From: Thermoplasmata archaeon
GTDB lineage: Archaea; Thermoplasmatota; Thermoplasmata; Lutacidiplasmatales; UBA184
Reading direction: 5' to 3'
Assembly (NCBI GenBank): GCA_030037815.1
Contig: JASHPZ010000022.1
Coordinates: 1,782 to 65,781, forward strand
Length of the DNA stretch: 64,000 nt
Part shown: in pieces, positions 27,787-63,079 of the stretch
Layout: every line of letters starts with the position of its first letter
Position numbering within the stretch: the first letter of the stretch is position 1
Made by a program: the position numbers and the translations under genes
The notes under the pieces: generated by a model
The model's input: the letters and a program-made list of their open reading frames with translations, nothing else
The model's database searches: none
What the model was told of the DNA's origin: nothing

Positions 27787-28404
27787 ATGCGCCGGTTCCT
27801 CCTCCTCGCGCACCGGGTCCCGGTCCGCGGCGGGTTCACGCTCAACGACCTCGCGGGCGGCGGCGGTCGGATGGACGAGGTCGCCCGGGCCGTCTCGACG
27901 GCGTTCACCCTCTCGAACGACCTCCGCCGCGACACCGAGATGACGGTCCTGTTCTCGGCCGAGCCCCCGCCGGCGGCCCGCAAGGTCCACCTGGTCGGGG
28001 CGCGGCTCCGCTACCTGAACCCGGACGAGCGGTCGACCGCCGCCCTGCTCAAGAACGCCCTCGTCCGGGCGGCCGACTTCCCGCGCGAGTTCGAGTCGTC
28101 CCCCGGGCTCCGCGTCGGTCCGGCCGACCCGCTCGACGAGCTGCGGGCGTTCCTGCGGGGACCCGGGACGGTCTGGCTGACCGAGTCGGGCCGCCCGGTC
28201 GCGGAGTGGGCGCCCCCCGGGTCGGACGTCGCCGCCGTGCTCTCGGACCCCGACGACCCGACCCCCGCGGAGGCCGAACTCCTCGGCGCGAGCGGGGTGC
28301 CGCGGTACTCGGTCGGCCCGCGATCGCTGCGCACGAGCCAGGTGGTCGACCTGTTCCACGCCGAGGTCGACCGCCGCGAGGCGGCCCGTCCCGTCACGCC
28401 GTGA
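27787..28404 (+). CDS. trmY: tRNA (pseudouridine54-N1)-methyltransferase TrmY (SPOUT, COG1901/DUF358).
   Basis: The N-terminus MRRFLLLAHRVPVRGGFTLNDLAGGGGRMDEVARAVSTAFTLSNDLRRD matches the TrmY consensus (M..F...a....t..f.L.DLpG..GRlDllcR....aFflS...RrD). Confidence 0.7.
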   Translation: MRRFLLLAHRVPVRGGFTLNDLAGGGGRMDEVARAVSTAFTLSNDLRRDTEMTVLFSAEPPPAARKVHLVGARLRYLNPDERSTAALLKNALVRAADFPREFESSPGLRVGPADPLDELRAFLRGPGTVWLTESGRPVAEWAPPGSDVAAVLSDPDDPTPAEAELLGASGVPRYSVGPRSLRTSQVVDLFHAEVDRREAARPVTP

Positions 28405-29392
28405 CGGCGTCCCGCACGGTCCGCGTGCGGAGCCCCCCGACCACGGCGGTCAGGTGGACGACCTCCCGCGGCTCGGGGCGGACCCGGGTCCCAAAGACGA
28501 GCCGCTCGGGCTCCCCGAGGCGCGTGCGCATCGCCCGCAGCACGCGGTCGAGGCAGCGGAGCGTGAAGTTCGACCCTCCCTCCAGGTGGACGAGGGCGCT
28601 CGTGCGGCCCGAGAAGTGGAAGTCGAGGAGCGAGCCCGACAGCGCCTCCTGGACGAGCCGCTCGGGCTCGGAGACGTGGTACTCCCCCGAGAGGAGGGTC
28701 GAGAGCCCCGAATCCCGGAGGTGGTTTTTGAGGGTCGCGAGGTCGACGTTCAACTGGGACGGGTGGTCGACCATGTCGACCAGGCTCGCGACCAGCGAGT
28801 GGAGGTAGGCGTTCCGCACCTGGAAGACGCGGTGGATCGGGAGCGACTCGAACCGGCGGAGCTTCTCGTTCGAAAGGGCGAGGAGGAGCCCCCCCATCTC
28901 CTCGAGCTCGTCCACGGTCGCGACCACGTTCTCCCGCCGGCTCGCGTTGGTCTCGAGCTCGACCTGGAACGGGAGGAAGACGACCGGGACGGGCAGCGTC
29001 TCGGTGCGGCGGAGCTGCCCCGCGAGGTACGGGAGCAGCGCGCTCCCGGTCCCGCCCCCGAGGCCAGCGAGCAGGAAGACGATCTCGAACGGCCGCAGCC
29101 GGCGGAGCAGCTCCTCGCGGCTCTCCTCGGCCGCCCGAAGGACCGCGTCGCGGTCGCCGCCGCTTCCGCGTCCGCGCAGTTCGCGGTGGGCGAGGAGGAT
29201 CCGCTCGTCCACGCCGACCCGCGCCAGGTGCTTCGCGTCCGTGTTGACGGCGATCGCGTGCGCGCCGGGGATCCCGAGCGCGAGGAGGTCCTGGACCGCC
29301 TCGCTGCCGGCACCGCCCAGGCCGACCACGGCGACCGACGGCGTGATCGCGAGCGAGGCCCACGCCTCGGGAGAATCGGGCTCGCCGGTCAT
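28394..29392 (-). CDS. FtsZ/tubulin-family GTPase. It is short (332 aa), divergent, has no C-terminal tail and has an altered T7 loop.
   Basis: The G-box is VAVVGLGGAGSEAV. A second motif is AVNTDAKHL. The tubulin signature is AGLGGGTGSA. The PVVFLPFQVE segment is present. The T7 loop reads QLNVDLATL where FtsZ has N.DFAD, so the second acidic residue is missing. Confidence 0.75.
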   Translation of the reverse strand: MTGEPDSPEAWASLAITPSVAVVGLGGAGSEAVQDLLALGIPGAHAIAVNTDAKHLARVGVDERILLAHRELRGRGSGGDRDAVLRAAEESREELLRRLRPFEIVFLLAGLGGGTGSALLPYLAGQLRRTETLPVPVVFLPFQVELETNASRRENVVATVDELEEMGGLLLALSNEKLRRFESLPIHRVFQVRNAYLHSLVASLVDMVDHPSQLNVDLATLKNHLRDSGLSTLLSGEYHVSEPERLVQEALSGSLLDFHFSGRTSALVHLEGGSNFTLRCLDRVLRAMRTRLGEPERLVFGTRVRPEPREVVHLTAVVGGLRTRTVRDAVTA

Positions 29393-29408: not shown

Positions 29409-29774
29409 CTACGGCGGGGGAGACCCTTCCGCGGCGACCGGCTCCCCTTCCCGGCGGTGCGTCCGGCCGGTCGGAGCGAGCTGCTCGATCCGGCTGCGGA
29501 TGTACTCGCGGACCGCGGAACGGACGGCGTCGTCCAGGCTGACGGACGCCCCCTCGCGGACGAACTCCTCGAGCCGGCTGTTGTCCTGCCGGGAGAGCTC
29601 GACCACGACCTTGCGGATGTTCTGCGGCGGCAGGTGGAGCTCGATGTACTGCTCGAGTCCCTCCCGGATCGTGTCGGAGATCGTCGGCGTGCCCTTCGCC
29701 TGCTGGATCTGCTTCAGCTTCTCGAGGAGATCCTGCGGGATCCGGACCGTCACCCGCTCCGACGTGTCGACCAT
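29409..29774 (-). CDS. Ribbon-helix-helix (CopG/Arc-like) DNA-binding protein, apparently with two RHH-like halves.
   Basis: The first half is VTVRIPQDLLEKLKQIQQAKG...REGLEQYIE. The second half is VVVELSRQDNSRLEEFVREG...VREYIRSR. It lies 16 nt upstream of the FtsZ-like gene. Confidence 0.7.
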   Translation of the reverse strand: MVDTSERVTVRIPQDLLEKLKQIQQAKGTPTISDTIREGLEQYIELHLPPQNIRKVVVELSRQDNSRLEEFVREGASVSLDDAVRSAVREYIRSRIEQLAPTGRTHRREGEPVAAEGSPPP

Positions 29775-29776
29775 GC

Positions 29777-29809
29777 TCGTCAGACAACACCCCTACCTTT
29801 GTCTGACGA
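29777..29809. promoter_or_regulatory. Perfect 11-bp inverted repeat TCGTCAGACAA-N11-TTGTCTGACGA. It sits immediately upstream of the RHH gene start and is a candidate auto-operator.
   Basis: Read from the sequence (ccATGctcgTCAGACAAcacccctacctTTGTCTGACGAac). RHH proteins typically bind such inverted repeats at their own promoters. Confidence 0.5.
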
Positions 29810-29952
29810 ACGACATATCGGGTTCCGACTATATCAAATCAGGGGAGCCGCGGGGCTTCGGGATTTAATCGGGCCCATCAGCCCTCGTGTGATTCTATTC
29901 GGGAGACTGTGATTTATTTGGCTACACCCGGCAACCGACAGTAGGGAGGCCG

Positions 29953-31029
29953 CTAGAGGGGTCTCCCCCCCTCAGTTGAGGGGGGTCTGGATGCCCTCAA
30001 TCTGAGTCCTACGTATCTGCGCAGGGCCAGTGCGATCGATAGTGCCATTTCTGCATCTGGTCGCTCTACGAGTTCATCCGGCCGCTCTGGGTGGGCACCA
30101 GCAGCGAGTAAGGACTTGACCGAACCTTGGTAAGCGAGCATGGCTTGAACTAAGTCCCCGAACGCATCAGTCATCTTCCGAGCTTTCTTCTCTGCTGATC
30201 CGAATCGATCCCCGAACGCGGAGTTCGAATTTGCCCCCAACTCGCGTTCCAAGGTCTCGACGACATCTCGGGACGCCGCTATCGAGAGCTTGTACTCCCC
30301 CGAAAGGAATTGCTTGACGGCATTTCTCAAGTAGACGTCCACTTGAGCAGAATTCTCAAAATTCTCTACGGGGACCTCATAGATCAACCAGTTACCATAC
30401 CCTAGGCCAGGGAGAAGTTTCTCAACCCATTTGCTCCTCTCGATTGTCAGAGTATGCATCCTTTCGTCGTGGCTCACGACTTCCAGGTCTTCCGTGTTGA
30501 ATGGGACCAGGTACGGCATCTTCCCCACGGGAAGGGCTCCCTCGTCGAACTCGTACCGGGCGATCCCCCCAAACCTGACTTGAATCCCAAAAGAGGGTTC
30601 GTTACCGGCTCGAGCGTCCTCGAGACCCTCGAGAACCGTTGGTTGGAGCGGAAACTGGAACTCGAACTCTACTTCGTAGCCCGCGTTGAGCACAAGGTTG
30701 GAAGTCCGAAGGGTGCGGGCGTACCCCTTCGCCACTAACGGCATGTTAACGAGGGACCCCTGAGGGCCAGCGGTCCACCTCAACCAGGCATCGGCCTGAA
30801 GGACCACAAACTGGACAGACTTGGCGTCGGTTCGCTCGATCTGAACGTTCGTACCTCCACCACTCGATGAAACTTGTACCAGGACTACCGCAGAGAGTAC
30901 TGGCATGAATCCGCTGTTGCCAGTGTCGAAGGACTTGAGCTCGAGATGGAAGAAACACTGCGGATTGAGTACCATCTTCCCACCCGCCGCTCGACCTGTA
31001 ACCTCTGCAGGCTTTGAGCCCCATCCCAT
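29953..31029 (-). CDS. Island hypothetical protein A.
   Basis: The ORF is 358 aa with protein-like composition. It lies downstream of the operon after a 455-nt gap. I recognise no family. Confidence 0.45.
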   Translation of the reverse strand: MGWGSKPAEVTGRAAGGKMVLNPQCFFHLELKSFDTGNSGFMPVLSAVVLVQVSSSGGGTNVQIERTDAKSVQFVVLQADAWLRWTAGPQGSLVNMPLVAKGYARTLRTSNLVLNAGYEVEFEFQFPLQPTVLEGLEDARAGNEPSFGIQVRFGGIARYEFDEGALPVGKMPYLVPFNTEDLEVVSHDERMHTLTIERSKWVEKLLPGLGYGNWLIYEVPVENFENSAQVDVYLRNAVKQFLSGEYKLSIAASRDVVETLERELGANSNSAFGDRFGSAEKKARKMTDAFGDLVQAMLAYQGSVKSLLAAGAHPERPDELVERPDAEMALSIALALRRYVGLRLRASRPPSTEGGRPL

Positions 31030-31484
31030 ACCGAGTTCCGCTAGTTTGTGCCCAGCCTATCGGAGCTATGGAAGCGCGAGCCGACCCCAGTCCGTTGGTA
31101 AAGTTAGACCATTTGCGTCCTCCTTACGGTTGAACTGCAGAAGTTTGCCTAACGTCATGGCCGAATGGACCGCCAGATGCCGATGCTCAGAGACCTCCCG
31201 ATGCTCGGGCCACGGGTGTGACAGGCATACAATTCAGAGGATCGACCTTAGCGGCAGGTTGTCCGTTCGACCCTCCCAATGCATCTCAGGTGGCCCTCGG
31301 CTGCTACTTCGGAATCCTGCACCGCAGGGCATGAGTTCCCCGCGCGTGCGCCTGCGAGAAGACAGCGGTCGGAATCGAGTCGGCATATTCCTTAGCGAGC
31401 CCCGGGTAGTTGCGGGAGCACCGGGCCGCAAGGCCTCCTTGAGCTCAGTGTCCGTTCATGAACCGGAACGTGGTGGAACCCACC

Positions 31485-32264
31485 CTACGGCCGCCCAGGC
31501 CTCGCCGTGGGATACCAGAGCGGTGCCTGGATGGGTCGGCTTGTGCCCAGCCGTTTCCCGATTGGATAGCAAGGCATCACGGGCATCTTTTCTACGATTG
31601 CAACCATTTCGGGCGGCCAACCTCCTTCGACAATGGTCGGGAAGTGATCGCTAAGTATCCCGTATACGACCGCCGGCAGATCGAGCGGGGGCGTTGGAAC
31701 CCGCGGGACTCCAGATTTTATTTGCGACTGCCGCTGAACGCATCTAGTACCGATCGCCTGCTCGGAAATACCGCCGAAGTCTATCTGTGCATGGAAGAGC
31801 GGATGATCTCTTTGGAAGTGCTTGTCGGGGTCGAATGCCATGTCGTAGTGGAGCCCCGCAAGGACTTGGGATGGTGCCCAGCGGGCCGGTGGTAGGTCAG
31901 GGCGGTCCGTGTCCGTTCGACGATAGTGGACCCGAACGACGGACGCTATGACCTCATAATTTCCGCCAGTCGCACCCCGTGTGGACTGTCTTATCTCCTG
32001 CTCAAATTGGATCGAAATCTCGCATGTTGACTTGCCGAGGCTCTGCGGCTTGATGGGGACCTGCAAGAAATGCAACGCGCAATCTCCTCCGCACGTAGCG
32101 GTTAGACAACCGACTCTTCCCTCCGGGTCGAAGTCTACTTGAATTTCGCCTGGTGTCGAGGGTCGAGCGTTCGGCAGCAATCCGCTGAGTCGTGTCCAAA
32201 ACTCTGAGTAACGTGAGAGGAGGACTGGCTTGTCCCTGAGACTCAGCCCGCCCGTCCTAAACAT
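31485..32264 (-). CDS. Island hypothetical protein B, His-rich (HYDMAFDPDKHFQRDHPLFH). It may be a metal-dependent enzyme.
   Basis: The ORF is 259 aa and lies 16 nt downstream of the receiver-like gene, so it is probably co-transcribed. Confidence 0.45.
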   Translation of the reverse strand: MFRTGGLSLRDKPVLLSRYSEFWTRLSGLLPNARPSTPGEIQVDFDPEGRVGCLTATCGGDCALHFLQVPIKPQSLGKSTCEISIQFEQEIRQSTRGATGGNYEVIASVVRVHYRRTDTDRPDLPPARWAPSQVLAGLHYDMAFDPDKHFQRDHPLFHAQIDFGGISEQAIGTRCVQRQSQIKSGVPRVPTPPLDLPAVVYGILSDHFPTIVEGGWPPEMVAIVEKMPVMPCYPIGKRLGTSRPIQAPLWYPTARPGRP

Positions 32265-32280
32265 GAACTCAATGACCTTT

Positions 32281-33357
32281 TCACAACGTGAGCCACGGGG
32301 GGAGCCGGGCGAACTCTCGTTTTCTAATTCGCGAGCGGTCCGCGCCCAACGGTATCAGCGCCATCGGACGTACCGAGTGTCTCTCGCAAACTGGTCGCTC
32401 GGACACGATACAAAAGTACCCCGCCCCTTCATGACCCTCCGCGCAACGACAGTGCGAGATTCCCCCTAACTTGCTCTGCGCGAGGTCGTATCCGGTGCCG
32501 TGGGTCGACGACGCCGGACTCCCGGTGGCGATGATCCGATCTAACTCGCAGGTCCACCAGTAGGGCCCTGTTTCTGAGAAGGGTCCCCGATAGACCGCGT
32601 CATCGAACAATCCCCGAACTTCAGCTCGTTCATTGAACTGTTGGTCGTCGATGTCAAGGTAGGATGCGGCCGCGGTCGCATTTAGAAGAACTCCCGCGAA
32701 ATGTAGCAGCTCGTTTACAACCCAGTATCCAAGTGTCGAAGCGACGATTCGAGTCTTCCGAGCCGAATCTAGCTTCCTGCTCGCCCTCACCACGGCGACG
32801 GGAGTCTTTGGGCCCCAGCGATACCGTTGCAGTGCGAGCGCTGCTTCGGCAGGGGCCTTCAACACGCTCTTGGCAAACTGATCCATCCTCTGAGTGGACG
32901 AGAGGTTCGAATTAGCGACCAGTTGGTCGAATCCCGAGGCATACGAAATCAAGAGTTGGGGTACACGTGACGACTGCTCAGCGACGTCAATCGATATCTC
33001 CCGATCTCGACTCCTTAGAAGATATTCAGTCCTCGTCGCCGCCCCAGGTTGAAAAGTATAGACGCAGACCGGGACGCCGATTTGCTGGCAGACCGTCTGC
33101 ACGCCGTCCCGGTCAACCAGCGGGTCGTACATTGTGAGGTCATAGTCCAACACGGCGAGACTCGCCACTCTGGGGGAGCTTAGAAAACGTCGAATCTGAC
33201 TGCGAAGTCGCATATCATAGGACTGCGCCGGTTCGTTTGGCCGTCTGGGCGGGGGGACGAAGCGAGCGGCGTTGGGCGTCGTCGCAACTTGAGATTCCAG
33301 CTGCTCGTGTAGCTCTTCATAGGGCTGCGGATCATCTTCAAAGAAAACTATGCGCAT
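32281..33357 (-). CDS. Receiver-like (REC) domain protein with a C-terminal Cys/His-rich effector domain of unknown function.
   Basis: The start is taken at the internal ATG (MRIVFFEDDP...). REC-like landmarks are the acidic pair (EDD), a candidate phospho-acceptor Asp (LAVLDYDL) and a Thr (VCVYT), with a loop insertion. The C-terminal cluster is HCRCAEGHEGAGYFCIVSERPVCERH. It lies 10 nt downstream of the GHKL/HK gene. Confidence 0.5.
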   Translation of the reverse strand: MRIVFFEDDPQPYEELHEQLESQVATTPNAARFVPPPRRPNEPAQSYDMRLRSQIRRFLSSPRVASLAVLDYDLTMYDPLVDRDGVQTVCQQIGVPVCVYTFQPGAATRTEYLLRSRDREISIDVAEQSSRVPQLLISYASGFDQLVANSNLSSTQRMDQFAKSVLKAPAEAALALQRYRWGPKTPVAVVRASRKLDSARKTRIVASTLGYWVVNELLHFAGVLLNATAAASYLDIDDQQFNERAEVRGLFDDAVYRGPFSETGPYWWTCELDRIIATGSPASSTHGTGYDLAQSKLGGISHCRCAEGHEGAGYFCIVSERPVCERHSVRPMALIPLGADRSRIRKREFARLPPWLTL

Positions 33358-33367
33358 ATCCTCTGAC

Positions 33368-35623
33368 CTAAAGTGGGAAGGCAACCTCAAATGCCGTGAC
33401 AAAGCCCTCAGGAGGTGCAGCGACCCTAATCTTCCCACCGACGGCCGTAACAGCACGCTTTACGATGAACAGCCCGAGCCCCAACCCGCCGGCTAGTGGT
33501 CCTGCAAGCTCTCGGGTTGTGGATACAAATGGGTCGAAAATGTAGTCCTTGATTTCCGGCGGTATTCCTGGTCCGGTGTCAGCGACACGAAGGATGTGCT
33601 CACCCTCAGTGTTCCGGGCCTCAATTCGGATCACGCGCGTGCCATCCTCTTTTGAGTGCATTAGTGCCTTGAGGGCATTCGTATAGAGGTTCAGAACGAC
33701 TGCCGAGTAGAGACCCCCCCAGACCTTCGGCGGGCGCATCCCTTCCTCCACCTTGTTCTCGGACTGAATCCTGCGCTTCGTAGCGATGTCCGAGAAGAGT
33801 CCCACTACGTGTTCAACAAGATCATACGGGCTGAACGGCTCTGGACCGACATCTGGTAGCCTGTGGAGGAATGTCTGCGAGTAGTCCATAAATGATCTGA
33901 GGCGATAAATCGAATCCTCCACCGACGTTCGGGCTTTCTCCATAGCAGCAGCGCGTCCGTCTGACTCGGCTCGTTTAAGCGCACTGACGGAATCCCTCAA
34001 AGAAGTCATCAAGGTCTTGGTCTCATGGGTCATGAAACTCGCGAGAACTCCGAGAAGTGAAGCAGACTCGACGGCAGCCAGCGCCTTTGACCTGGCCTCG
34101 TCGGTCCGGGTGTAACGTTCGGCAAGTTCCCTGAATGCGGCAAGAACCACGGTTTTTTCCGACGGGACAATGTCTCTACTCCGCTGAACTCGGAGGGCGG
34201 CGGCCGCGAGCGATTCACGGAAATCCTTGGCCTCAGTTTCGGCCTCTTCTCGGTCAATCTCTTGAACCCCACGGGCGTCGACAACTGCAAGGAGTTCGAC
34301 GGCGGTGATTACGAGTTGACGGAGTAGTCTGAACCCCTCGTTTTGGACAAGCCCCTGCCGGTCCATGGAGGGTTGAATTCTATCGATCTGGACGGCTCCC
34401 ACGGTCGACCGCTCACGAAAAGTTTCGATCGAGACCCAGCCGAGGACTTGGTGGTTCGCCGGGACGCGAAGATACGGGCTGTAACGGCCATCCGTCTCAA
34501 AAGTCGAGTCGGCGAGTAACTCGTCAGTTACAGGCGAGACCCATCGACGGAGGTTTCTTGCCATTCGGCCGGAAAGGTAGAGCCAGTCATCCTCGGGTTC
34601 CCCGTAGGGCTTAACCCGGATGCCCCGATCAACCAATCTAACGCCGCCCTGCTCCTGGAGGTAGGCGTGCGCCCGCCTCCCATCTGCGGTCGTGAGTCCA
34701 GAGAACACACCCGAGCGGTGCGGATAGAAACCTATCTCGCCTTGGAGGGGCCCAATCAACGCCTCCAATTTCGGAATTGTAGCAGTCCACTTGGAACTGA
34801 ACCGAGTCTCTTGGGTTTCCGGATTGCGGTAAGTAACCCGGTAGGTCAGCTTGCCGCCCTTGCTTGAGAACCGAACTCTGGCCAGCCATCGGTCCACTAT
34901 CTCACTGGTGGCGGTCTGAAGTTCAGTGCCGGATCCTGGCTCTCCGAAATACACTCGTAGGCCTGGGTCCTCTTCGGTCGACGAGGACGCTCGAGCTAGC
35001 CATTCTGGAATCGCTGGAGTGACTACGTCCAAAACCTGATTTGTGACTCTAGCCAACCTGGCCGAGTCCCAGTCGTCGGCGAGTTTTCCAATGCTCAGGT
35101 GGGTGTAACTCGCGTTGTCGGGCCGTGGCGAAAGAATACGGTAGTGTACCTTGATGTCCTTCAGCTCACGTCCCGGTTTGAATTTGGCCCAATCGAAATC
35201 CGAAGACAACCGAAGACGCTTCCCCGCCTCCCCAGAATCCGCTGTTGTGTCCAAGTTGAGAGTCAGGCCGAGACGCCGGACAGCAAAGCGTCCGACTCCC
35301 TTCGACCCGGTGAGTGGGCGTTTGAAGATTCGAGACGCGTCCGAGCCAAGTTTTGACGTGGTTCCGATGCGCATCCATCCAGAGAGAAATTCCCGTTCAT
35401 TCATCCCGGTCCCGTTGTCTTGTATGTGCAACTTTGGCGACGCACCCCCCTCGAGCCACAGATAGACTTCCGTCGCATCGGCATCAAACGAATTCTTAAT
35501 CAGCTCAGAAAGCGCGGTGTTTGGATCGACAATCAGTCGCTCTCCGAGCTCAGACAGAATTTGCGCGTCACCTGAGAACGTCGCGTCAGCTTCCCGTAGA
35601 GGGGGGCCCTCCGACTGAGCCAT
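33368..35623 (-). CDS. Dual-GHKL protein: an N-terminal MORC/MutL-like GHKL ATPase plus a C-terminal histidine kinase (HisKA + HATPase_c).
   Basis: N-terminal GHKL motifs are ELIKNSFDADATEV (motif I), IQDNGTGMNEREF (motif II) and GSKGVGRFAVRRLG (motif III). The C-terminal kinase has an H-box (SFMTHETKTLMTSL), an N-box (VVLNLYTNALKA), G1 (VADTGPGIPPE), an F-box (IFDPF) and G2 (GGLGLGLFIV). The protein is 751 aa. Confidence 0.8.
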   Translation of the reverse strand: MAQSEGPPLREADATFSGDAQILSELGERLIVDPNTALSELIKNSFDADATEVYLWLEGGASPKLHIQDNGTGMNEREFLSGWMRIGTTSKLGSDASRIFKRPLTGSKGVGRFAVRRLGLTLNLDTTADSGEAGKRLRLSSDFDWAKFKPGRELKDIKVHYRILSPRPDNASYTHLSIGKLADDWDSARLARVTNQVLDVVTPAIPEWLARASSSTEEDPGLRVYFGEPGSGTELQTATSEIVDRWLARVRFSSKGGKLTYRVTYRNPETQETRFSSKWTATIPKLEALIGPLQGEIGFYPHRSGVFSGLTTADGRRAHAYLQEQGGVRLVDRGIRVKPYGEPEDDWLYLSGRMARNLRRWVSPVTDELLADSTFETDGRYSPYLRVPANHQVLGWVSIETFRERSTVGAVQIDRIQPSMDRQGLVQNEGFRLLRQLVITAVELLAVVDARGVQEIDREEAETEAKDFRESLAAAALRVQRSRDIVPSEKTVVLAAFRELAERYTRTDEARSKALAAVESASLLGVLASFMTHETKTLMTSLRDSVSALKRAESDGRAAAMEKARTSVEDSIYRLRSFMDYSQTFLHRLPDVGPEPFSPYDLVEHVVGLFSDIATKRRIQSENKVEEGMRPPKVWGGLYSAVVLNLYTNALKALMHSKEDGTRVIRIEARNTEGEHILRVADTGPGIPPEIKDYIFDPFVSTTRELAGPLAGGLGLGLFIVKRAVTAVGGKIRVAAPPEGFVTAFEVAFPL

Positions 35624-37018
35624 CTATCGGCCCGCGGATCGTGGCGACTCGGTATAGGCCGATAGAATTGAGTTCATTTGGCCCACTTCGATGCGTCTCA
35701 TGCCCCCGACCCAGGGGACGCTACCGCGAGCGAAGTTCCAAGACTTAAGGTAGTTCACCAGGCGGCTAGGGGACTGCCTCGGAGTCCCAATGTGTATCGC
35801 GTGGACGGTACCGAGGTGGACAACCCCGCTCGGATTGCTCACAACTTTGAGGCCGCGAGAACTCGAGTACGCGCTGGAATAGAGGACTTTCCCGGGGATC
35901 GGCACGGTGTAGTCGTACCAAACCGCTCGAGCCCCGCAAGTACTGTTCTCTTGAATCGATTTGGGCACCGAATCCAACCATGCCCGTACGGCAGAATCGA
36001 GCCCTGGCGAGTCCGTCCTCAAGAGCCAACACCGAAGTCCGGCACGGACGTACCTAGCCGTGAATGCAGCTCGAGTGAGAGTGGTGAAGGTGTTTGGGAG
36101 TGGCCGAAGGGTGCCCACCGCTGGCCAAACCGCGTCAAGCGGAATTCGCGCCTCAATACGTTCCGCCTCTGTCAAGACGAACCAGTTTCGTGAGCCTGGG
36201 CTCAGCCCTCTGAAGGCATACAGGTGATCCGATCGTGGCGAGTGCCCTCTCGTGGAAATCAATCGCCTCGAGCCGCCACCCTTTCTTGGGCGAAGGTCGG
36301 CGCGCAGTTTCACCAAGCTGACAGTGGAGCATGACTCGTTTTTTTCGATCAGAGTGATCCCTGCGTTCGCCCTCTTTCCGATGTCAAAATCCACCGTGGA
36401 AGGGAGCTCGAATAGTGTAACCTTCCACTTGTGTTTCAGAATGTAACTCCTTAGTGCTCGGGTAGCAGCTTTCTGGATCCAGTCAGACGGTAAGACCATG
36501 CAGACTCTCCCATCTGCCGACGTCCTCAGAGTTGCGAACCAAAGAAAGTAGCAGGCGAGGTTTCCCAGCGGGCCAGGGTCAACCCCAGCTTCCTGTTTTA
36601 TCAATCGACGTGCGCGATCACGCCACAGCGAGTCCAAGTCTTGCACTCGCATGAAGGGCGGATTTCCTATTGCTAATTCGAACTCGCCCTTCGCTTCCAG
36701 GGCGTCCCGACACCGAATCTTTGCATTCCGAGGAAGAGTGAGGGTTCGTACTTTGGGGTCCAGCTCATACCCTAGGTACGACCCATACTTTCCGTAGAGC
36801 GCGAATCGGCCGTCCCCCGCACCCAGATCGAGGACAGTGTGCGGCTTGAACCGACCTTTCGTACACAGCCGCCAAGCCGCCGAGACTACGGGATATGGAG
36901 TCACAACCTGGCACCGTCGAAGGCTCGGCAAGTTACCCCGCGTCCCGGGTCGGCTGGAAACCTGTCCGGGAATAGTCTTCACCGGAAATGGTCGGGGGTT
37001 AGACTTTGAACTGATCAT
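35624..37018 (-). CDS. N6-adenine-type DNA methyltransferase (gamma-like order: motif I precedes NPPF) with a large C-terminal presumptive target-recognition region.
   Basis: Motif I is VLDLGAGDGRF. Motif IV is IGNPPF. The protein is 464 aa. Its stop abuts the GHKL/HK start. Confidence 0.78.
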   Translation of the reverse strand: MISSKSNPRPFPVKTIPGQVSSRPGTRGNLPSLRRCQVVTPYPVVSAAWRLCTKGRFKPHTVLDLGAGDGRFALYGKYGSYLGYELDPKVRTLTLPRNAKIRCRDALEAKGEFELAIGNPPFMRVQDLDSLWRDRARRLIKQEAGVDPGPLGNLACYFLWFATLRTSADGRVCMVLPSDWIQKAATRALRSYILKHKWKVTLFELPSTVDFDIGKRANAGITLIEKNESCSTVSLVKLRADLRPRKGGGSRRLISTRGHSPRSDHLYAFRGLSPGSRNWFVLTEAERIEARIPLDAVWPAVGTLRPLPNTFTTLTRAAFTARYVRAGLRCWLLRTDSPGLDSAVRAWLDSVPKSIQENSTCGARAVWYDYTVPIPGKVLYSSAYSSSRGLKVVSNPSGVVHLGTVHAIHIGTPRQSPSRLVNYLKSWNFARGSVPWVGGMRRIEVGQMNSILSAYTESPRSAGR

Positions 37019-37168
37019 GAGCCCCGAAACCCCAAGACGCGCATCTACGTAGACTTACCGACGTCGACGTCGGGTCTCCCCTGTGAACTACATGAGCTGC
37101 CCCTCGGAACCGGAGGGTGGGCGCCCCGCAATGGGGGCCGCGGGTAGACGCGCCGCTCTGCCTGTTTG

Positions 37169-37513
37169 CTATTTACGGTGTGGGAAGTCGATTGCCTTCA
37201 GCGCCTGATTTCTGACCGATTCGGGAACGGAGCCGTCGCCCCCGATTTCTGCGAGTAGTTGGAGTCCTGCTGCTCCAGTCTTCGCCAGGGCTGTGACCGC
37301 GTGTTCTTTGACGCTGGACGGAGATTGAGGATCCCTGATGGTCTTCGATAGCGACTTTGCCAACTTGGCGGCCTCGTCAGTCTGCACCCAAGCCTCGATT
37401 GCCTCGACCAAGCCCTTGCTGAGGTCTCCCTTCCGGCCGCCGAACCGCTGGGCCACGGTAATCCGCAGCCGTTTGGCCAGTGCGTCTGGGATAACCGCGT
37501 CAATTCGAGCCAT
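37169..37513 (-). CDS. RHH (CopG/MetJ/Arc-like) transcriptional regulator with a C-terminal HEAT-like helical repeat. It is the first gene of the island operon.
   Basis: The start is taken at the internal ATG (MARIDAVIPDALAKRLRITVAQRFGGRKGDLSKGLVEAIEAW is an RHH). The longer listed start (37579) would overlap the divergent transposase start. Confidence 0.55.
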   Translation of the reverse strand: MARIDAVIPDALAKRLRITVAQRFGGRKGDLSKGLVEAIEAWVQTDEAAKLAKSLSKTIRDPQSPSSVKEHAVTALAKTGAAGLQLLAEIGGDGSVPESVRNQALKAIDFPHRK

Positions 37514-37550
37514 TGGTAATCTCTCAGAGTCACCCCATAGATGAACATTT

Positions 37551-38957
37551 GTGTCTACCCACTTATCCGAGTTGCTCATATACTTCCGTGATATGTGTGT
37601 AAGTGGTTACACACGCAATATGACGAAACTCGGCGAGGGCGATATGGTTGCACGCCTGCGGGCGTTCGAGCTCATCGCTGCTAACGAAGAGCCGATCATT
37701 CCTGTCAGCCGGTCGACCTACAGGGTGCACTCCCAATCGCGGGACAGCTACTACACGATTTCTCGTAAGCAGGGTCACTGGTGGTGTACCTGCGACGGGT
37801 TTGACGCTGCCCGGGGGCGGTGCAAACACATCTGGGCGGTCGAGATTTGGCGGGAGCCGGCGAAACACTATGTTCAGAACTCGTCCGAATCGTCTTCCCA
37901 CAAGAGTTACGGTCAGGATTGGCCCGCATACGACGCCGGCCAGCAGGATGAACACCGACTCTTCGATCGCCTACTTTGGGGACTCCTCGAAGACGTAGTC
38001 GAGCCCGTCCGCCCAGTAGGCAAGCGCGGGCGGCCTCCAATCCCGCTCCGTGTTCAGCTGCTTCACTCGATCCGGAAAGTTCACCTGAACAAGGCAGCGC
38101 GGGAGGTCAAGGGACTGCTCGACACGATCTATGCGGGCGGGCTTGGAATCGTGGAAGGGATACCAAACTACGCGACCCCATCCCGCCTTTTCAACCAGCC
38201 CTTCGTCTCAGAGATTCTTGTTGGCTTGATAGAGCGCTCTAGCCTTCCCCTGAAGGACATCGAGGAGACTCGAACTGTCGCGATCGACTCATCAGGTTTC
38301 TGCCTCACCTGCATGAGTGCCTATTGCACCGAGAAGCACGATCCGACTCGGAAGCACAAGTGGATCAAGGCTCACGTCATCATCGGGGTGAAAACTCACA
38401 TCATACTGGACGTCCGGATCACAGATGAACACGGTGCGGACTGCCCGCAGCTTATCCCGATGCTGGAGGACCTGGTTCGCCGAGGATTCCGACCCAGGAA
38501 AGTGCTCGGCGACAAGGCCTACCTGTCACGGGAGAACTACCGGGTCGCCCGGACCATCGGAGCCGACGCTTACTTTCCGTTCAAGCCGAACAGTGTCGGA
38601 ACCTCGAAAGGGAGCTGCGAGTGGGCCCGAAAGTACCACCAATTCCAACTAAAACGCGAGGAGTTCGACCACGAGTATCGCCAACGGAGCAACGTCGAGG
38701 CGGTCTTCTCCGCCATAAAGAGAAAGCTTGGTGAGCCCCTCTTCTCGAAGAACGTCCTTTCACAATTCAACGAGCTCCTCGCCAAGCTGCTCGCCTACAA
38801 CATCGGTATCGTAATCCACGAGATGCACGAGCATGGGATTGATCCCGAGGTCAACTGCCCACCGGATCCCCCCTATGTCCCACCTGTCCCGGTCTTCGAG
38901 CCCGCTCCCTGTGATTCAAATGGGGAGGTTGTGATTGAATTCGAGGTAGTATCCTAG
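37551..38957 (+). CDS. Transposase: an N-terminal SWIM zinc finger plus a DDE domain of the IS4/IS5 superfamily.
   Basis: The SWIM motif is WWCTCDGFDAARGRCKH. The DDE residues lie in AIDSSGF and LGDKAY. HEYRQRSNVEAVFSAIK matches the Y-(2)-R-(3)-E-(6)-K signature. The start is GTG. Confidence 0.8.
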   Translation: MSTHLSELLIYFRDMCVSGYTRNMTKLGEGDMVARLRAFELIAANEEPIIPVSRSTYRVHSQSRDSYYTISRKQGHWWCTCDGFDAARGRCKHIWAVEIWREPAKHYVQNSSESSSHKSYGQDWPAYDAGQQDEHRLFDRLLWGLLEDVVEPVRPVGKRGRPPIPLRVQLLHSIRKVHLNKAAREVKGLLDTIYAGGLGIVEGIPNYATPSRLFNQPFVSEILVGLIERSSLPLKDIEETRTVAIDSSGFCLTCMSAYCTEKHDPTRKHKWIKAHVIIGVKTHIILDVRITDEHGADCPQLIPMLEDLVRRGFRPRKVLGDKAYLSRENYRVARTIGADAYFPFKPNSVGTSKGSCEWARKYHQFQLKREEFDHEYRQRSNVEAVFSAIKRKLGEPLFSKNVLSQFNELLAKLLAYNIGIVIHEMHEHGIDPEVNCPPDPPYVPPVPVFEPAPCDSNGEVVIEFEVVS

Positions 38958-39067: not shown

Positions 39068-40108
39068 GTGGGCAACGCCTTACCTGCGAGCGGCACGGCC
39101 TCCCGATCGCGAGTGAACGCCCTCGACCCGGCGCAGTACCGCCTGCGCGCGCTTCGCCTCGACGACCTGCCGGCCGTCGCGGCGATCGGCAATCGGATCC
39201 ACCCGGTCCACCGGACGACCGAGGAGGTCGCGGAGTGGCGGACCGCGTTCGACTCCCCGACCCACTTCCGGCAGGAGCTCGTCGCGGTCCACGTGCCCAC
39301 CGACGCGGTGGTCGCGTTCGCCTCCATCGAGCACCACCCGCACATGCAGCACCCCCAGAAGTTCTGGGTCGGGGTCGAGGTCGACCCGGACCACCGCGGG
39401 CACGGCGTCGGCTCCGCCCTCTACGAGGAGCTCGACCGGACCGCCCGCTCCCTCCACGCCGTCCGGCTCTGGTGCTCGACGCAGGAGGCCGACCGGGGCG
39501 CGGTCGCGTTCGGCGACCGCCGCGGATTCCGCACCGTACGGAGGGTCTGGACCTCCCGGCTCGACGTCGCGTCGGCCCACCTCGAGCGGTTTCCCGACCG
39601 CACGGCGTCGCTCGAACGCGACGGGGTCCGGTTCACGACGCTCGAAGCGGAAGGGTTCGACCGGCCGGAAGTGCGCCGGGAGATGTACGAGCTCTACCGG
39701 GCGACGCACCGCGACATCCCGTCGATCGGGACGCGGTCGGACGTGACCTACGAGGAGTTCGAGCGTTCGGAGGTCGACCGGCCGGGGGTGCGGGCGGGGA
39801 CCGTCCTGCTCGCCGCCCGGGGCGACCGGTACGTCGGCGTCTCGAGCATCGAGCCGCTCGCCGCGGACGCGTCCACGCTCGTGGTCGGGTTCACGGGCAC
39901 GTTGAAGGAGCTCCGGGGACGGGGCGTGGCGACCGAACTGAAGCGACGCGCGGTCGAGTTCGCGCGGGCGCGGGGGTTCCGTTCGATCCTGACGAACAAC
40001 GACTCCCTGAACGCCCCGATCTGGTCGATCAACGAGCGCCTCGGCTTCCGTCCCGAGGCGACGTACCTCCAGCGCGAGCGGCGGTTGGACGCGGAGACGA
40101 CCGCCTAA
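39068..40108 (+). CDS. GNAT-family N-acetyltransferase with tandem GNAT domains.
   Basis: The acetyl-CoA-binding motifs are HRGHGVGSALY and LRGRGVATELKRRAVEFARARG. The start may be a downstream GTG (VNALDP...). Confidence 0.72.
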   Translation: MGNALPASGTASRSRVNALDPAQYRLRALRLDDLPAVAAIGNRIHPVHRTTEEVAEWRTAFDSPTHFRQELVAVHVPTDAVVAFASIEHHPHMQHPQKFWVGVEVDPDHRGHGVGSALYEELDRTARSLHAVRLWCSTQEADRGAVAFGDRRGFRTVRRVWTSRLDVASAHLERFPDRTASLERDGVRFTTLEAEGFDRPEVRREMYELYRATHRDIPSIGTRSDVTYEEFERSEVDRPGVRAGTVLLAARGDRYVGVSSIEPLAADASTLVVGFTGTLKELRGRGVATELKRRAVEFARARGFRSILTNNDSLNAPIWSINERLGFRPEATYLQRERRLDAETTA

Positions 40109-41742
40109 TGGACCCCGACGACCCGTCCGTCCGGAGTGACGTCGATCCCCTCGGACGCGGGGTGGGTCGGTAGGCCGGGCATCAACTCGACCGTCCCGAG
40201 CTGGGCGACCGTGAACCCCGCGCCGGCCGAGCGCAAGAACCGGTCGACGTGGACCCGGTACCCGGGCGGGGGCCGGTTGCGCAGCTTCGGGTCGTCCGAG
40301 AGTGAGAGTGGGGTCTTCGCGACGCACACCGGGCCCGACCGTTCCCCGATGCGCGCCCACGTCGCGAGGTCGGCAGCGGCCTCCTCGAGTGTTTCGACTC
40401 CGGACGCCGCGTAGAGCATCCGGGCGATGATCTCGAGCTGACGCTCCGGCGCCGTGTCGGGGGGGTAGAGCGGGCGACTCCTCCGGCCGAGTCCGGCCGC
40501 CGCTTCGACCGCGCGGGCCAGCTCGACCGTCCCGGCGCCTCCCTCCTCGAATCCCCGGGAGACCGCGAGTTCCACCCCGTGCGCCCGACAGCCGGTGCGG
40601 ATGGCCTCCGCTTCGGCGTCCGAGTCTCCGGGAAACCGGTTGAGCGCGACCACCCCGGCGAGCCCCAGCGCCTCCAGGTTGGCGAGGTGCTGTTCCAGGC
40701 TCTCGAGCCCGCGCGCGAGGGCGGCGGGAGCCGGCTGCTCCGCTTCGGCCTCGGTCGCGCCTCCCTGCACCCGGAGGCTCCGCTGGGTGACGACCAGCAC
40801 CGCCGCGTCCACCGGCACCCCGAGGACCGGGGTGACGATGTCGACGAACTTCTCCGCCCCCAGGTCGGTCGCGAACCCGGCCTCCACGACGCAGTACTCC
40901 GACGTCGCCAGTCCGAGCTCGATGGCGAGCCGGCTGCACGTGCCGTGGGCGATGTTCCCGAACGGACCCGCGTGCACGAGGGCGGGGACGCCCTCGGACG
41001 TCTGGACGAGGTTCGGCTCGAGCGCGTCCCGGAGTACCGCCGCCATCGCGCCCTCCGCCTTCAGGTCGGTCGCGCGGACGGCCGCGCCGGCCCGGTCGAA
41101 CGCGACGAGCATCCGGCCGAGCCGCTGCTTCAGGTCGGCGTAGTCCCGCGCAAGCGCGAGGATCGCCATCACCTCCGAGGCCGCCGTGATCACGAACGGG
41201 TTGTCGTGGACGACCGACCGCGGGTCCGGGAGCTTCCCGACGGTGACGTGGCGGAGCGCCCGGTCCTCGGTGTCCGTCGTGCGCGGCCAGAGGATCCGAG
41301 CGGGGTCGATCCCGAGCGCGTTCCCGTGGAACAGGTGGTTGTCGACGAGCGCGGAGAGGAGGTTGTGCGCCGCCGCGACCGCGTGGATGTCGCCGGTGAA
41401 GCCGAGGTTGATCTCCGCGGCCGGCTCGACGGTCGCGCGTCCCCCGCCCGTCGCCCCGCCCTTGACGCCGAACGTCGGGCCGAGCGACGGCTGACGGAGG
41501 CAGGCGACCGCGCGGCGTCCGGCGCGGGCGAGCCCGTCGGCGAGCCCGATGACGGTGACGGTCTTTCCCTCGCCGTGCCGCGTCGGGGTGACGCCGGTGA
41601 CGAGGACCAGCTTCCCGCGGGGACCCCGTTCCGCCCAGGCGCGGACGACGGAGACCGGGACCTTGCCGACGGTGCCGAGGGCGGGGCGGAGTTCCTCGGG
41701 CCCGAGGCCGAGCGCGCGGCCGAGTTCCGGGAGCGACCGCAT
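40105..41742 (-). CDS. fhs: Formate--tetrahydrofolate ligase.
   Basis: The P-loop is TPTRHGEGKTVTVIGL (consensus PTPaGEGKtTttIGL). The protein is 545 aa with FTHFS-typical regions throughout. Confidence 0.9.
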   Translation of the reverse strand: MRSLPELGRALGLGPEELRPALGTVGKVPVSVVRAWAERGPRGKLVLVTGVTPTRHGEGKTVTVIGLADGLARAGRRAVACLRQPSLGPTFGVKGGATGGGRATVEPAAEINLGFTGDIHAVAAAHNLLSALVDNHLFHGNALGIDPARILWPRTTDTEDRALRHVTVGKLPDPRSVVHDNPFVITAASEVMAILALARDYADLKQRLGRMLVAFDRAGAAVRATDLKAEGAMAAVLRDALEPNLVQTSEGVPALVHAGPFGNIAHGTCSRLAIELGLATSEYCVVEAGFATDLGAEKFVDIVTPVLGVPVDAAVLVVTQRSLRVQGGATEAEAEQPAPAALARGLESLEQHLANLEALGLAGVVALNRFPGDSDAEAEAIRTGCRAHGVELAVSRGFEEGGAGTVELARAVEAAAGLGRRSRPLYPPDTAPERQLEIIARMLYAASGVETLEEAAADLATWARIGERSGPVCVAKTPLSLSDDPKLRNRPPPGYRVHVDRFLRSAGAGFTVAQLGTVELMPGLPTHPASEGIDVTPDGRVVGVH

Positions 41743-63005: not shown

Positions 63006-63079
63006 TGCCGCGGGCCGGGCTTGAACCGGCGGCTTCAAGATCTTCAGTCTTGCACTCTCCCAAACTGAGTTACCGCGGC
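63006..63079 (-). tRNA. tRNA-Phe (anticodon GAA); no CCA is encoded.
   Basis: The minus-strand read is GCCGCGGTAACTCAGTTTGGGAGAGTGCAAGACTGAAGATCTTGAAGCCGCCGGTTCAAGCCCGGCCCGCGGCA. The acceptor stem is GCCGCGG/CCGCGGC. The anticodon loop is CTGAAGA. The T-loop is GGTTCAAGCC. Coordinates are approximate by 1-2 nt. Confidence 0.8.

Follow-up and report, generated by a model that had tools for sequence, protein, structure and literature searches.

Within a 64,000-nucleotide stretch of DNA from a Thermoplasmata archaeon (GenBank assembly GCA_030037815.1, contig JASHPZ010000022.1, positions 1,782 to 65,781; hereafter the window), the open reading frame (ORF) at 32281-33357 encodes a 358-residue protein that we read as an atypical response regulator cognate to the kinase of an Ambrosia-like defence cassette, a hybrid of restriction-modification (R-M) and two-component signalling carried on a horizontally acquired island. 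We put the probability of this reading at roughly 0.55. The protein would consist of an N-terminal receiver (REC) domain followed by an output domain with a helical linker, a winged-helix-like module and a Cys/His module, and its gene is flanked by those of a large sensor kinase and of a smaller protein rich in His and Asp (Table 1). The signalling core of the cassette is common to Ambrosia and to the paraMORC two-component elements described in 2021, and the output domain and the fourth gene belong to uncharacterised families.

The gene itself was confirmed to be genuine. A preliminary description of the window, made from the letters of the DNA alone, had pointed to an ORF at these positions; the ORF exists and lies on the minus strand, running from an ATG at 33357 to a stop codon at 32281-32283, while the plus-strand translation of the same interval is riddled with stops. 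All of the peptides quoted in that description are found in the 358-residue translation, among them MRIVFFEDDP (residues 1-10), LAVLDYDL (67-74), VCVYT (97-101), LDIDDQQFNERAE (234-246) and HCRCAEGHEGAGYFCIVSERPVCERH (302-327). The choice of ATG 33357 as start agrees with the N-termini of aligned homologues, and the 10-nucleotide gap that separates the kinase stop codon from this ATG holds AGAGGA, a Shine-Dalgarno-like sequence.

A word-indexed search with the protein retrieved 16 relatives, and an exhaustive profile search returned 711 cluster representatives at E<=1e-3 (clusters at 50% identity), of which 222 scored E<=1e-30. Among the 150 matches listed, nearly all measure 345-390 residues and align over their full length, and these 150 representatives of the 711 clusters are the sample behind every count of residue conservation in the family given below. 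Matches in such number, mostly at full length among those listed, rule out a frame that is open by chance. Members come from a Paraburkholderia plasmid, a metagenome-assembled genome (MAG) of Mariprofundaceae and many metagenomes, and a related-locus search with a 10-sequence alignment returned one GTDB locus. The family is large and taxonomically broad, and all of it is annotated as hypothetical. None of Pfam, NCBIfam, PADLOC and PHROGs holds a model for it, and the protein itself gave no usable match in these four collections.

For the N-terminal domain, modelling and profile comparison support a receiver fold in which the Asp pocket is intact, the Ser/Thr position varies and the canonical Lys is missing. 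The AlphaFold model, built with the family alignment as input, reached a mean predicted local distance difference test (pLDDT) of 87.2 and a predicted template modelling score (pTM) of 0.88, and its residues 1-148 follow a strict beta-alpha order repeated five times, forming a five-stranded flavodoxin-like fold. When the 150-sequence family profile was compared with the sequences in PDB, the top four matches were REC chains. Acidic pair, phospho-Asp and Ser/Thr position coincide in these alignments as the canonical register requires, and the REC Lys falls opposite position 124. The pocket residues are very strongly conserved: position 7 is Glu or Asp in 150/150 and D8 is present in 149/150, while D71, which aligns with the phospho-Asp of response regulators in PDB, is kept in 148/150 and the position two residues after it (73) is acidic, Asp or Glu, in 140. 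A receiver at the N-terminus had been proposed in the preliminary description, and both the AlphaFold topology and the register of the PDB profile matches back it. Its landmarks also proved correct, namely E7-D8 as the acidic pair, D71 as the phospho-acceptor and T101, and the loop insertion that it estimated at about 20 residues is shorter, about 12-15 residues relative to the family, and lies in the beta2-alpha2 loop.

Toprim domains, whose strand order is similar to that of REC, also have as their signature a conserved acidic residue where beta1 ends and a D-x-D where beta3 ends. In addition, the family pattern [ED]7-D8 plus D71-x-D73-L-[ST]75, with its acidic position 73, contains a DxDx[ST] string that resembles motif I of HAD enzymes, so that the N-terminal domain might be catalytic, of a Toprim-like or HAD-like kind. 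We consider this highly improbable and rejected it, since no such fold appears among the matches listed and the REC-like sequence matches are all in the REC register. Moreover, REC domains have just this five-stranded (beta-alpha)5 layout, and the gene always adjoins that of a histidine kinase.

In this neighbouring kinase, Pfam recognises HATPase_c_3 (E 3.6e-19) as well as HATPase_c (E 1.4e-24), and PDB matches are to histidine kinases over residues 506-750, including the DHp domain, and to MutL over residues 30-133. Across nine aligned kinases from independent loci, H533-E534 of the H-box is invariant in 9/9, as are N44, DxGxG, N645/N649, D682xGxG and GxGLGL, which cover the ATP-binding boxes of both ATPase domains. 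Judged by these motifs, the protein would be a competent histidine kinase. The genes of kinase, regulator and fourth protein lie side by side in 12/12 independent loci, taken from metagenomes, MAGs, closed genomes and one Paraburkholderia plasmid, in which the regulators are 21-42% identical to the one studied here. Kinase and regulator genes stand 10 nucleotides apart in the window and abut or overlap in other loci. Directly upstream of the kinase, an Eco57I-family methyltransferase gene is found in 10/12 of these loci, its place being taken in one further locus (L012) by an unannotated gene of 325 residues.

The same arrangement is known from Ambrosia, a system reported from Gammaproteobacteria that guards P. 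aeruginosa against phage and comprises the XRE regulator AbrR, the N6 methyltransferase AbrA, the 747-residue HATPase/histidine kinase AbrB, the 209-residue REC protein AbrC and the 213-residue HNH nuclease AbrD (bioRxiv 10.1101/2025.09.30.679545). According to that preprint, defence is lost with the AbrC mutation D60A, and likewise with mutations of conserved residues in any predicted functional domain; reporters at abrA and abrD are induced upon infection; AbrC is proposed to act transcriptionally; and methylation by AbrA gives phage no protection (10.1101/2025.09.30.679545). We compared the cassette with the sequences in its Table S1, taking AbrB and AbrA over residues 1-399. The gene order is shared, with a small regulator, an N6-adenine methyltransferase, a kinase of about 750 residues combining HATPase_c_3 and histidine kinase domains, a REC protein and a small effector. 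The kinase itself aligns with AbrB at 27% identity over 366 residues (BLASTP E 2e-29), including the region between the ATPase domains. Neither AbrC nor the regulator described here reaches the Pfam REC model.

The two systems also differ. AbrC is short, with a small helical tail after its receiver, whereas the protein in the window carries an output domain of about 210 residues, and a direct comparison of the two (hhalign probability 7.6%) aligned beta1-beta3 only, placing D60 opposite D71, with no significant BLASTP match. In place of an HNH nuclease gene the cassette has a fourth gene that matches no HNH model in Pfam or PADLOC and gave an hhalign probability of 0.2% against AbrD. BLASTP found no similarity between the methyltransferase, of the Eco57I family, and residues 1-399 of AbrA, and the candidate regulator upstream is ribbon-helix-helix (RHH)-like, unlike the XRE protein AbrR.

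Several observations weigh against reading the protein as a phosphorylated regulator of an Ambrosia-like system. The matches to PDB REC sequences are each sub-significant (E 0.07-0.2), and neither PF00072 nor PF19192 matched the protein or 25 other members of the family even at E<=10. At position 101, the end of beta4, Ser or Thr is found in only 63/150 members (Ser in 51, Thr in 12, as opposed to Ala in 42 and His in 26), although the protein studied here does have T101. Where beta5 ends, the family lacks the canonical Lys: at position 124 there is Asp in 50, Pro in 32, Glu in 15 and Lys in 6 of the 150, so the earlier remark that the conserved Lys was not obvious is borne out, with D124 at that site in the window. 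The output domain is unrelated in sequence to that of AbrC, and the Ambrosia mechanism may for this reason not transfer. Gene fusions offer no support either: two candidate Rosetta-stone proteins, P0141 (1116 residues, kinase plus regulator) and P0162 (596 residues, regulator plus fourth gene), were rejected as probably frameshifted gene calls, their junctions being garbled and the G2 box and Cys module out of frame. Finally, phosphotransfer, DNA binding and a defence phenotype are all predicted properties of this regulator family.

Taken together, the loss of the Lys across the family, the presence of Ser/Thr in only 42% of members and the missing Pfam match would also suit a pseudo-receiver, that is, a REC-like domain which is never phosphorylated, in a protein that would serve constitutively as a scaffold or DNA-binding subunit between the GHKL/kinase and the fourth protein; the high pTM obtained at full length points to a rigid body of two domains, in line with such a role. 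We regard this as unlikely. The near-perfect conservation of the Asp-pocket residues is hard to explain without phosphoryl or Mg2+ chemistry, the partner kinase keeps its invariant H-box His and all ATP-binding boxes, and the equivalent Asp, D60, is essential in Ambrosia. A phosphorylated response regulator stays the preferred reading of the N-terminal half.

A second group of described elements bears on this question. Response_reg_2 (PF19192) comprises divergent REC proteins encoded beside HEF_HK (PF19191) kinases in R-M neighbourhoods, and these pairs relate to paraMORC ATPases (Bellieny-Rabelo et al. 2021, PMC8011034). As in those pairs, a divergent REC protein that carries no other known domain here adjoins a soluble kinase with HATPase_c_3, DHp and HATPase_c domains in an R-M neighbourhood. 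On the other hand, PF19192 and PF19191 match neither the proteins of the window nor the 25 other members scanned, the REC Lys is kept there and absent here, and the accompanying genes there are mainly C5-cytosine methylases, Vsr and HNH_2, as opposed to an Eco57I-like N6-adenine methylase and a His/Asp-rich protein here (PMC8011034). A relationship with Shedu/paraMORC3 was considered and rejected, as no DUF4263 is present.

Turning to the C-terminal half, the pattern of conservation and weak structural matches suggest that the output domain is most likely a DNA-binding or partner-binding module rather than a nuclease. Residues 147-358 modelled alone gave a pLDDT of 87.9, and a Foldseek comparison of the domain with PDB returned nothing at E<=0.001, leaving it with no close structural relative. 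The weak structural matches fall into two groups, excisionase/MerR-type winged helices and zinc fingers of the FYVE/RIM type (rabphilin 5.3, melanophilin 4.8, RUFY1 4.0, RIM2 3.9); RIM2 also heads the Foldseek list, at sub-significant level, and the LIM-domain protein testin is a weak sequence match. The stretch FPG-LLN-AAASYLDI...YRGPF...YWW-x-x-LD would form the winged-helix part and the C303/C305/C316/C324/H327 region a zinc-knuckle-like part. For the helical segment in front of them, residues 149-217, structure comparison found no specific fold match.

Conservation in this half falls mainly on aromatic residues, Gly, Pro and Cys, together with S328 (148/150), R343 (148/150) and D273 (129/150); Y179 and Y256 are highly conserved as well. 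The ligand region is followed by the motif S328...W/L334-x-P-x-G-A-D-x-x-R343. C305 (142/150) and C316 (141/150) are family-wide and the other ligand positions vary, so that of the Cys/His cluster noticed in the preliminary description this pair stands as a family feature. The position of H327 holds His in 54, Cys in 42 and Asn in 27 of the members, H302 and H309 are not conserved, and four or more of the five candidate ligand positions are Cys or His in 92/150. An acidic patch that had drawn attention earlier, LDIDDQQ, is not conserved in the family.

The preliminary description had offered the protein as a phosphorylation-gated nuclease or a DNA-binding effector. In the first of these, phosphorylation of the receiver would license restriction of DNA by the C-terminal Cys/His domain, a nuclease fold of a new kind on this view. 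There would be room for a new enzyme fold in a domain without close structural relatives, the polar residues S328, R343, D273, Y179 and Y256 are highly conserved, and no nuclease domain is recognisable anywhere in the cassette in scans with Pfam, PADLOC and further libraries. Nevertheless, we found neither a fold match nor a conserved set of catalytic residues for HNH, PD-(D/E)xK, GIY-YIG, PLD or Toprim in the protein: the constellation of acidic residues, His and Lys typical of the first four is missing, and its candidate His residues (H302, H309, H327) vary. The structural matches it does have are to winged-helix and zinc-finger domains, and the 259-residue protein that always co-occurs with it bears an enzyme-like HxD...HPxFHxQ...D...DH set. 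A nuclease in the regulator is therefore distinctly unlikely, and this reading probably does not hold, while a DNA-binding effector, the other half of the earlier proposal, is the better supported one. The results approach, without reaching it at high confidence, the plain non-nuclease DNA binder of zinc-ribbon type that the preliminary description had set against its own proposal.

The fourth gene follows the regulator directly in 12/12 loci and encodes proteins of 203-262 residues. A search with the single sequence from the window retrieved itself alone, and a profile built from the syntenic copies brought in at least 171 homologues. Pfam, PADLOC, NCBIfam and PHROGs contain no match to it, and PDB profile searches returned nothing relevant. 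In its alignment, Y114, D141, H154, P155, H158, P190, D206 and H207 are invariant and H139, Q160, R188 and D195 nearly so. Since an invariant His/Asp constellation of this kind is expected of a metal-dependent hydrolase, the fourth protein is the enzyme-like component of the cassette and, going by its conserved residues, a likely hydrolytic effector and a better candidate for restriction than the regulator. The regulator had earlier been presented as the last likely enzymatic component of the methyltransferase operon and as the best candidate for its missing restriction or effector activity. Neither statement survives, given that the conserved residues of its C-terminal domain do not make up a catalytic set of acidic residues, His and Lys and that a conserved gene with invariant His and Asp comes after it. 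For the annotation of the window, the candidate restriction component is accordingly 31485-32264 and not 32281-33357.

The two-component pair might instead have nothing to do with immunity and regulate an orphan N6-adenine methyltransferase for epigenetic control, with the fourth gene as an accessory. The lack of a recognisable nuclease domain in the cassette would fit such a role, and methylation by AbrA is not protective for phage, so that the part played by the methyltransferase is unconventional in Ambrosia too. This alternative is distinctly improbable in our view, because the genomic settings are those of mobile and defence-island-like DNA: those at other loci include type I R-M, ResIII, DUF499/DUF1156, integrases, toxin-antitoxin genes, insertion sequence (IS) elements and plasmids, and the cassette in the window sits inside a low-GC island that was most likely acquired horizontally. 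Its kinase is also homologous to that of a validated defence system. Such loci can be lost as well: in a 5.5-Mb genome, a decayed cassette (L014, 2992-10214) has a DDE transposase splitting the regulator gene, a truncated fourth gene followed by a second IS copy, and no methyltransferase upstream.

Under the preferred reading, a defence cassette governed by a response regulator, activation would proceed in five steps. The 751-residue protein would use its MutL/MORC-like GHKL ATPase, together with the middle domain, to sense infection or DNA of foreign origin. It would then autophosphorylate on H533 of the DHp domain, for which the motifs are present, and the phosphoryl group would move to D71 of the receiver, whose fold and Asp pocket are in place for this transfer. 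In turn, phosphorylation would switch the tightly packed output (helical bundle, winged helix and zinc-knuckle-like module) and its binding to DNA or to a partner. The activated regulator would finally turn on the 259-residue His/Asp-rich protein and possibly the methyltransferase, whether through transcription, the route proposed for AbrC, or by recruiting them directly. What we infer in this scheme is the phosphotransfer, the kind of output, which protein is the effector and the role of the cassette in defence.

A more ambitious version of the idea, which we hold to be rather doubtful, is that the regulator and the 259-residue protein define a widespread, undescribed class of restriction under two-component control (at least 711 clusters). 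In such systems the MORC/MutL-like ATPase-kinase would read the state of the DNA and phosphorylate a receiver without Lys, whose winged-helix/zinc output would recruit or activate a new hydrolase fold directly on DNA. Immunity would be gated post-translationally, in contrast to the transcriptional control proposed for Ambrosia, and both output and effector would represent new folds or families.

The cassette has partial parallels in other signalling systems. Detocs (DtcA/DtcB/DtcC) is reportedly a phosphorelay from histidine kinase to receiver in anti-phage immunity, with the output located on the receiver protein, as proposed here; its effector domain is said to be an ATP nucleosidase fused to the receiver. 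By the same accounts, Detocs has a buffer receiver and, unlike the present cassette, neither a methyltransferase nor a GHKL/MORC-like sensor domain. With the classical response regulators of the OmpR/PhoB, NarL and LytTR types, the protein shares a REC domain at the N-terminus, which contains a phospho-Asp pocket, and after it a helix-containing, probably DNA-binding C-terminal output. It differs from them in matching none of Trans_reg_C, GerE or LytTR, in the size and build of its output (about 210 residues that combine a putative excisionase-like winged helix with a Cys/His module) and in the absence of the Lys. The MADS system was rejected as a relative, the methyltransferase alone giving MAD2 matches, and weak ones.

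Hybrids of R-M and two-component systems have been validated only recently, in the Ambrosia preprint of 2025, and they raise questions about the sensing of infection by a MORC/MutL-like ATPase-kinase and about the action of the phosphorylated receiver. A cassette that shares the sensor kinase of Ambrosia and swaps both downstream modules offers a comparison by which conserved signalling can be separated from exchangeable effectors. It also supplies two families for structural and biochemical work, a receiver with an Asp pocket and no Lys, and a His/Asp-rich candidate hydrolase.

Table 1. Features of the cassette and of the island around it, in window coordinates.
Feature	Position	Strand	Description
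Regulator ORF	32281..33357	-	358 aa; atypical response regulator (predicted): REC, helical linker, winged-helix-like module, Cys/His module
Receiver (REC) domain	32914..33357	-	Residues 1-148; (beta-alpha)5 topology
E7-D8 codons	33334..33339	-	Acidic pair, end of beta1; predicted Mg2+ ligands
D71 codon	33145..33147	-	Predicted phospho-acceptor Asp, end of beta3; motif D-x-D-L-[ST]
Helical linker or bundle	32707..32913	-	Residues 149-217; helices H158-165, H170-178, H186-195, H198-217
Excisionase/MerR-like winged-helix candidate	32518..32706	-	Residues 218-280; FPG-LLN-AAASYLDI ... YRGPF ... YWW-x-x-LD
C-terminal Cys/His module	32284..32466	-	Residues 298-358; H302, C303, C305, C316, C324, H327
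Sensor kinase	33368..35623	-	751 aa; N-terminal MutL/MORC-like GHKL ATPase, conserved middle region, DHp and catalytic histidine-kinase domains; AbrB homologue
H533 codon	34025..34027	-	Predicted autophosphorylated His of H-box MTHE
Fourth cassette gene	31485..32264	-	259 aa; uncharacterised His/Asp-rich protein; candidate effector/hydrolase
Eco57I-family N6-adenine DNA methyltransferase	35624..37018	-	464 aa; VLDLGAGDG, NPPF; Pfam Eco57I E 3.9e-10; PADLOC MTase_II E 4.3e-14
136-aa ORF	37169..37579	-	RHH-like N-terminal region; upstream of methyltransferase; RHH_6 E 3.7e-4, below curated cut-off
Low-GC island with cassette	29800..38950		About 9 kb; GC 0.576 versus flanks 0.717 and 0.734
IS transposase	37551..38957	+	Island edge; DDE_Tnp_1 E 2.7e-20; SWIM zinc finger E 6.3e-5

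At the upstream end of the cassette, the stop codon of the methyltransferase gene abuts the start codon of the kinase gene. The 136-residue ORF with RHH-like features (Table 1), which was also called as a gene in L001, a Logan contig encoding an identical regulator, is possibly a controller protein in the position equivalent to that of AbrR; on the Paraburkholderia plasmid, a helix-turn-helix regulator occupies the same place. Directly upstream of the ATG of this ORF, a perfect 8+8 palindrome, GTGTGTAA-CCAC-TTACACAC, is located at 37595-37614 and may serve as an operator or mark the end of an IS. A scan for promoters and terminators gave nothing above shuffled expectation.

Other loci show variations around the same genes. 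In one lineage (L003, 1445-5507; L004, 1421-5483), a ResIII helicase-like gene of 905 residues precedes the cassette, its end overlapping the start of the methyltransferase gene, and a further gene of 481 residues also lies ahead of the cassette, an arrangement suggestive of a longer form that includes a translocase or a restriction subunit. A complete cassette in L015 (9779-16732) adjoins an opposite-strand gene cluster of DUF499 (with HEPN_Swt1) and DUF1156, another neighbourhood of the defence-island type.

A search for repeats at the borders of the island in the window found short repeats only, probably due to chance, the best candidate being a 19-nucleotide imperfect inverted repeat (29553-29571 / 38657-38675). 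Within the island, a further ORF of 358 residues (29953-31029, minus strand) was matched by nothing in Pfam, PADLOC, NCBIfam or PHROGs; L001 also carries this ORF, which is not conserved beside the cassette in other loci. At the left border, the gene of an FtsZ/tubulin-family GTPase (28394-29392, minus strand; Tubulin E 3.6e-24, FtsZ_C and a weak PHROG match to PhuZ) stands immediately downstream of that of a CopG-type RHH protein (29409-29774, minus strand), a pairing reminiscent of segregation modules of the TubZ/TubR type. Farther away, several long high-GC ORFs without a Pfam match occupy 20-28 kb, and on the other side of the island the window has housekeeping genes, namely those of a formate-tetrahydrofolate ligase (40105-41742, minus strand; Pfam FTHFS E 3.9e-191) and of a tRNA-Phe (63006-63079, minus strand).

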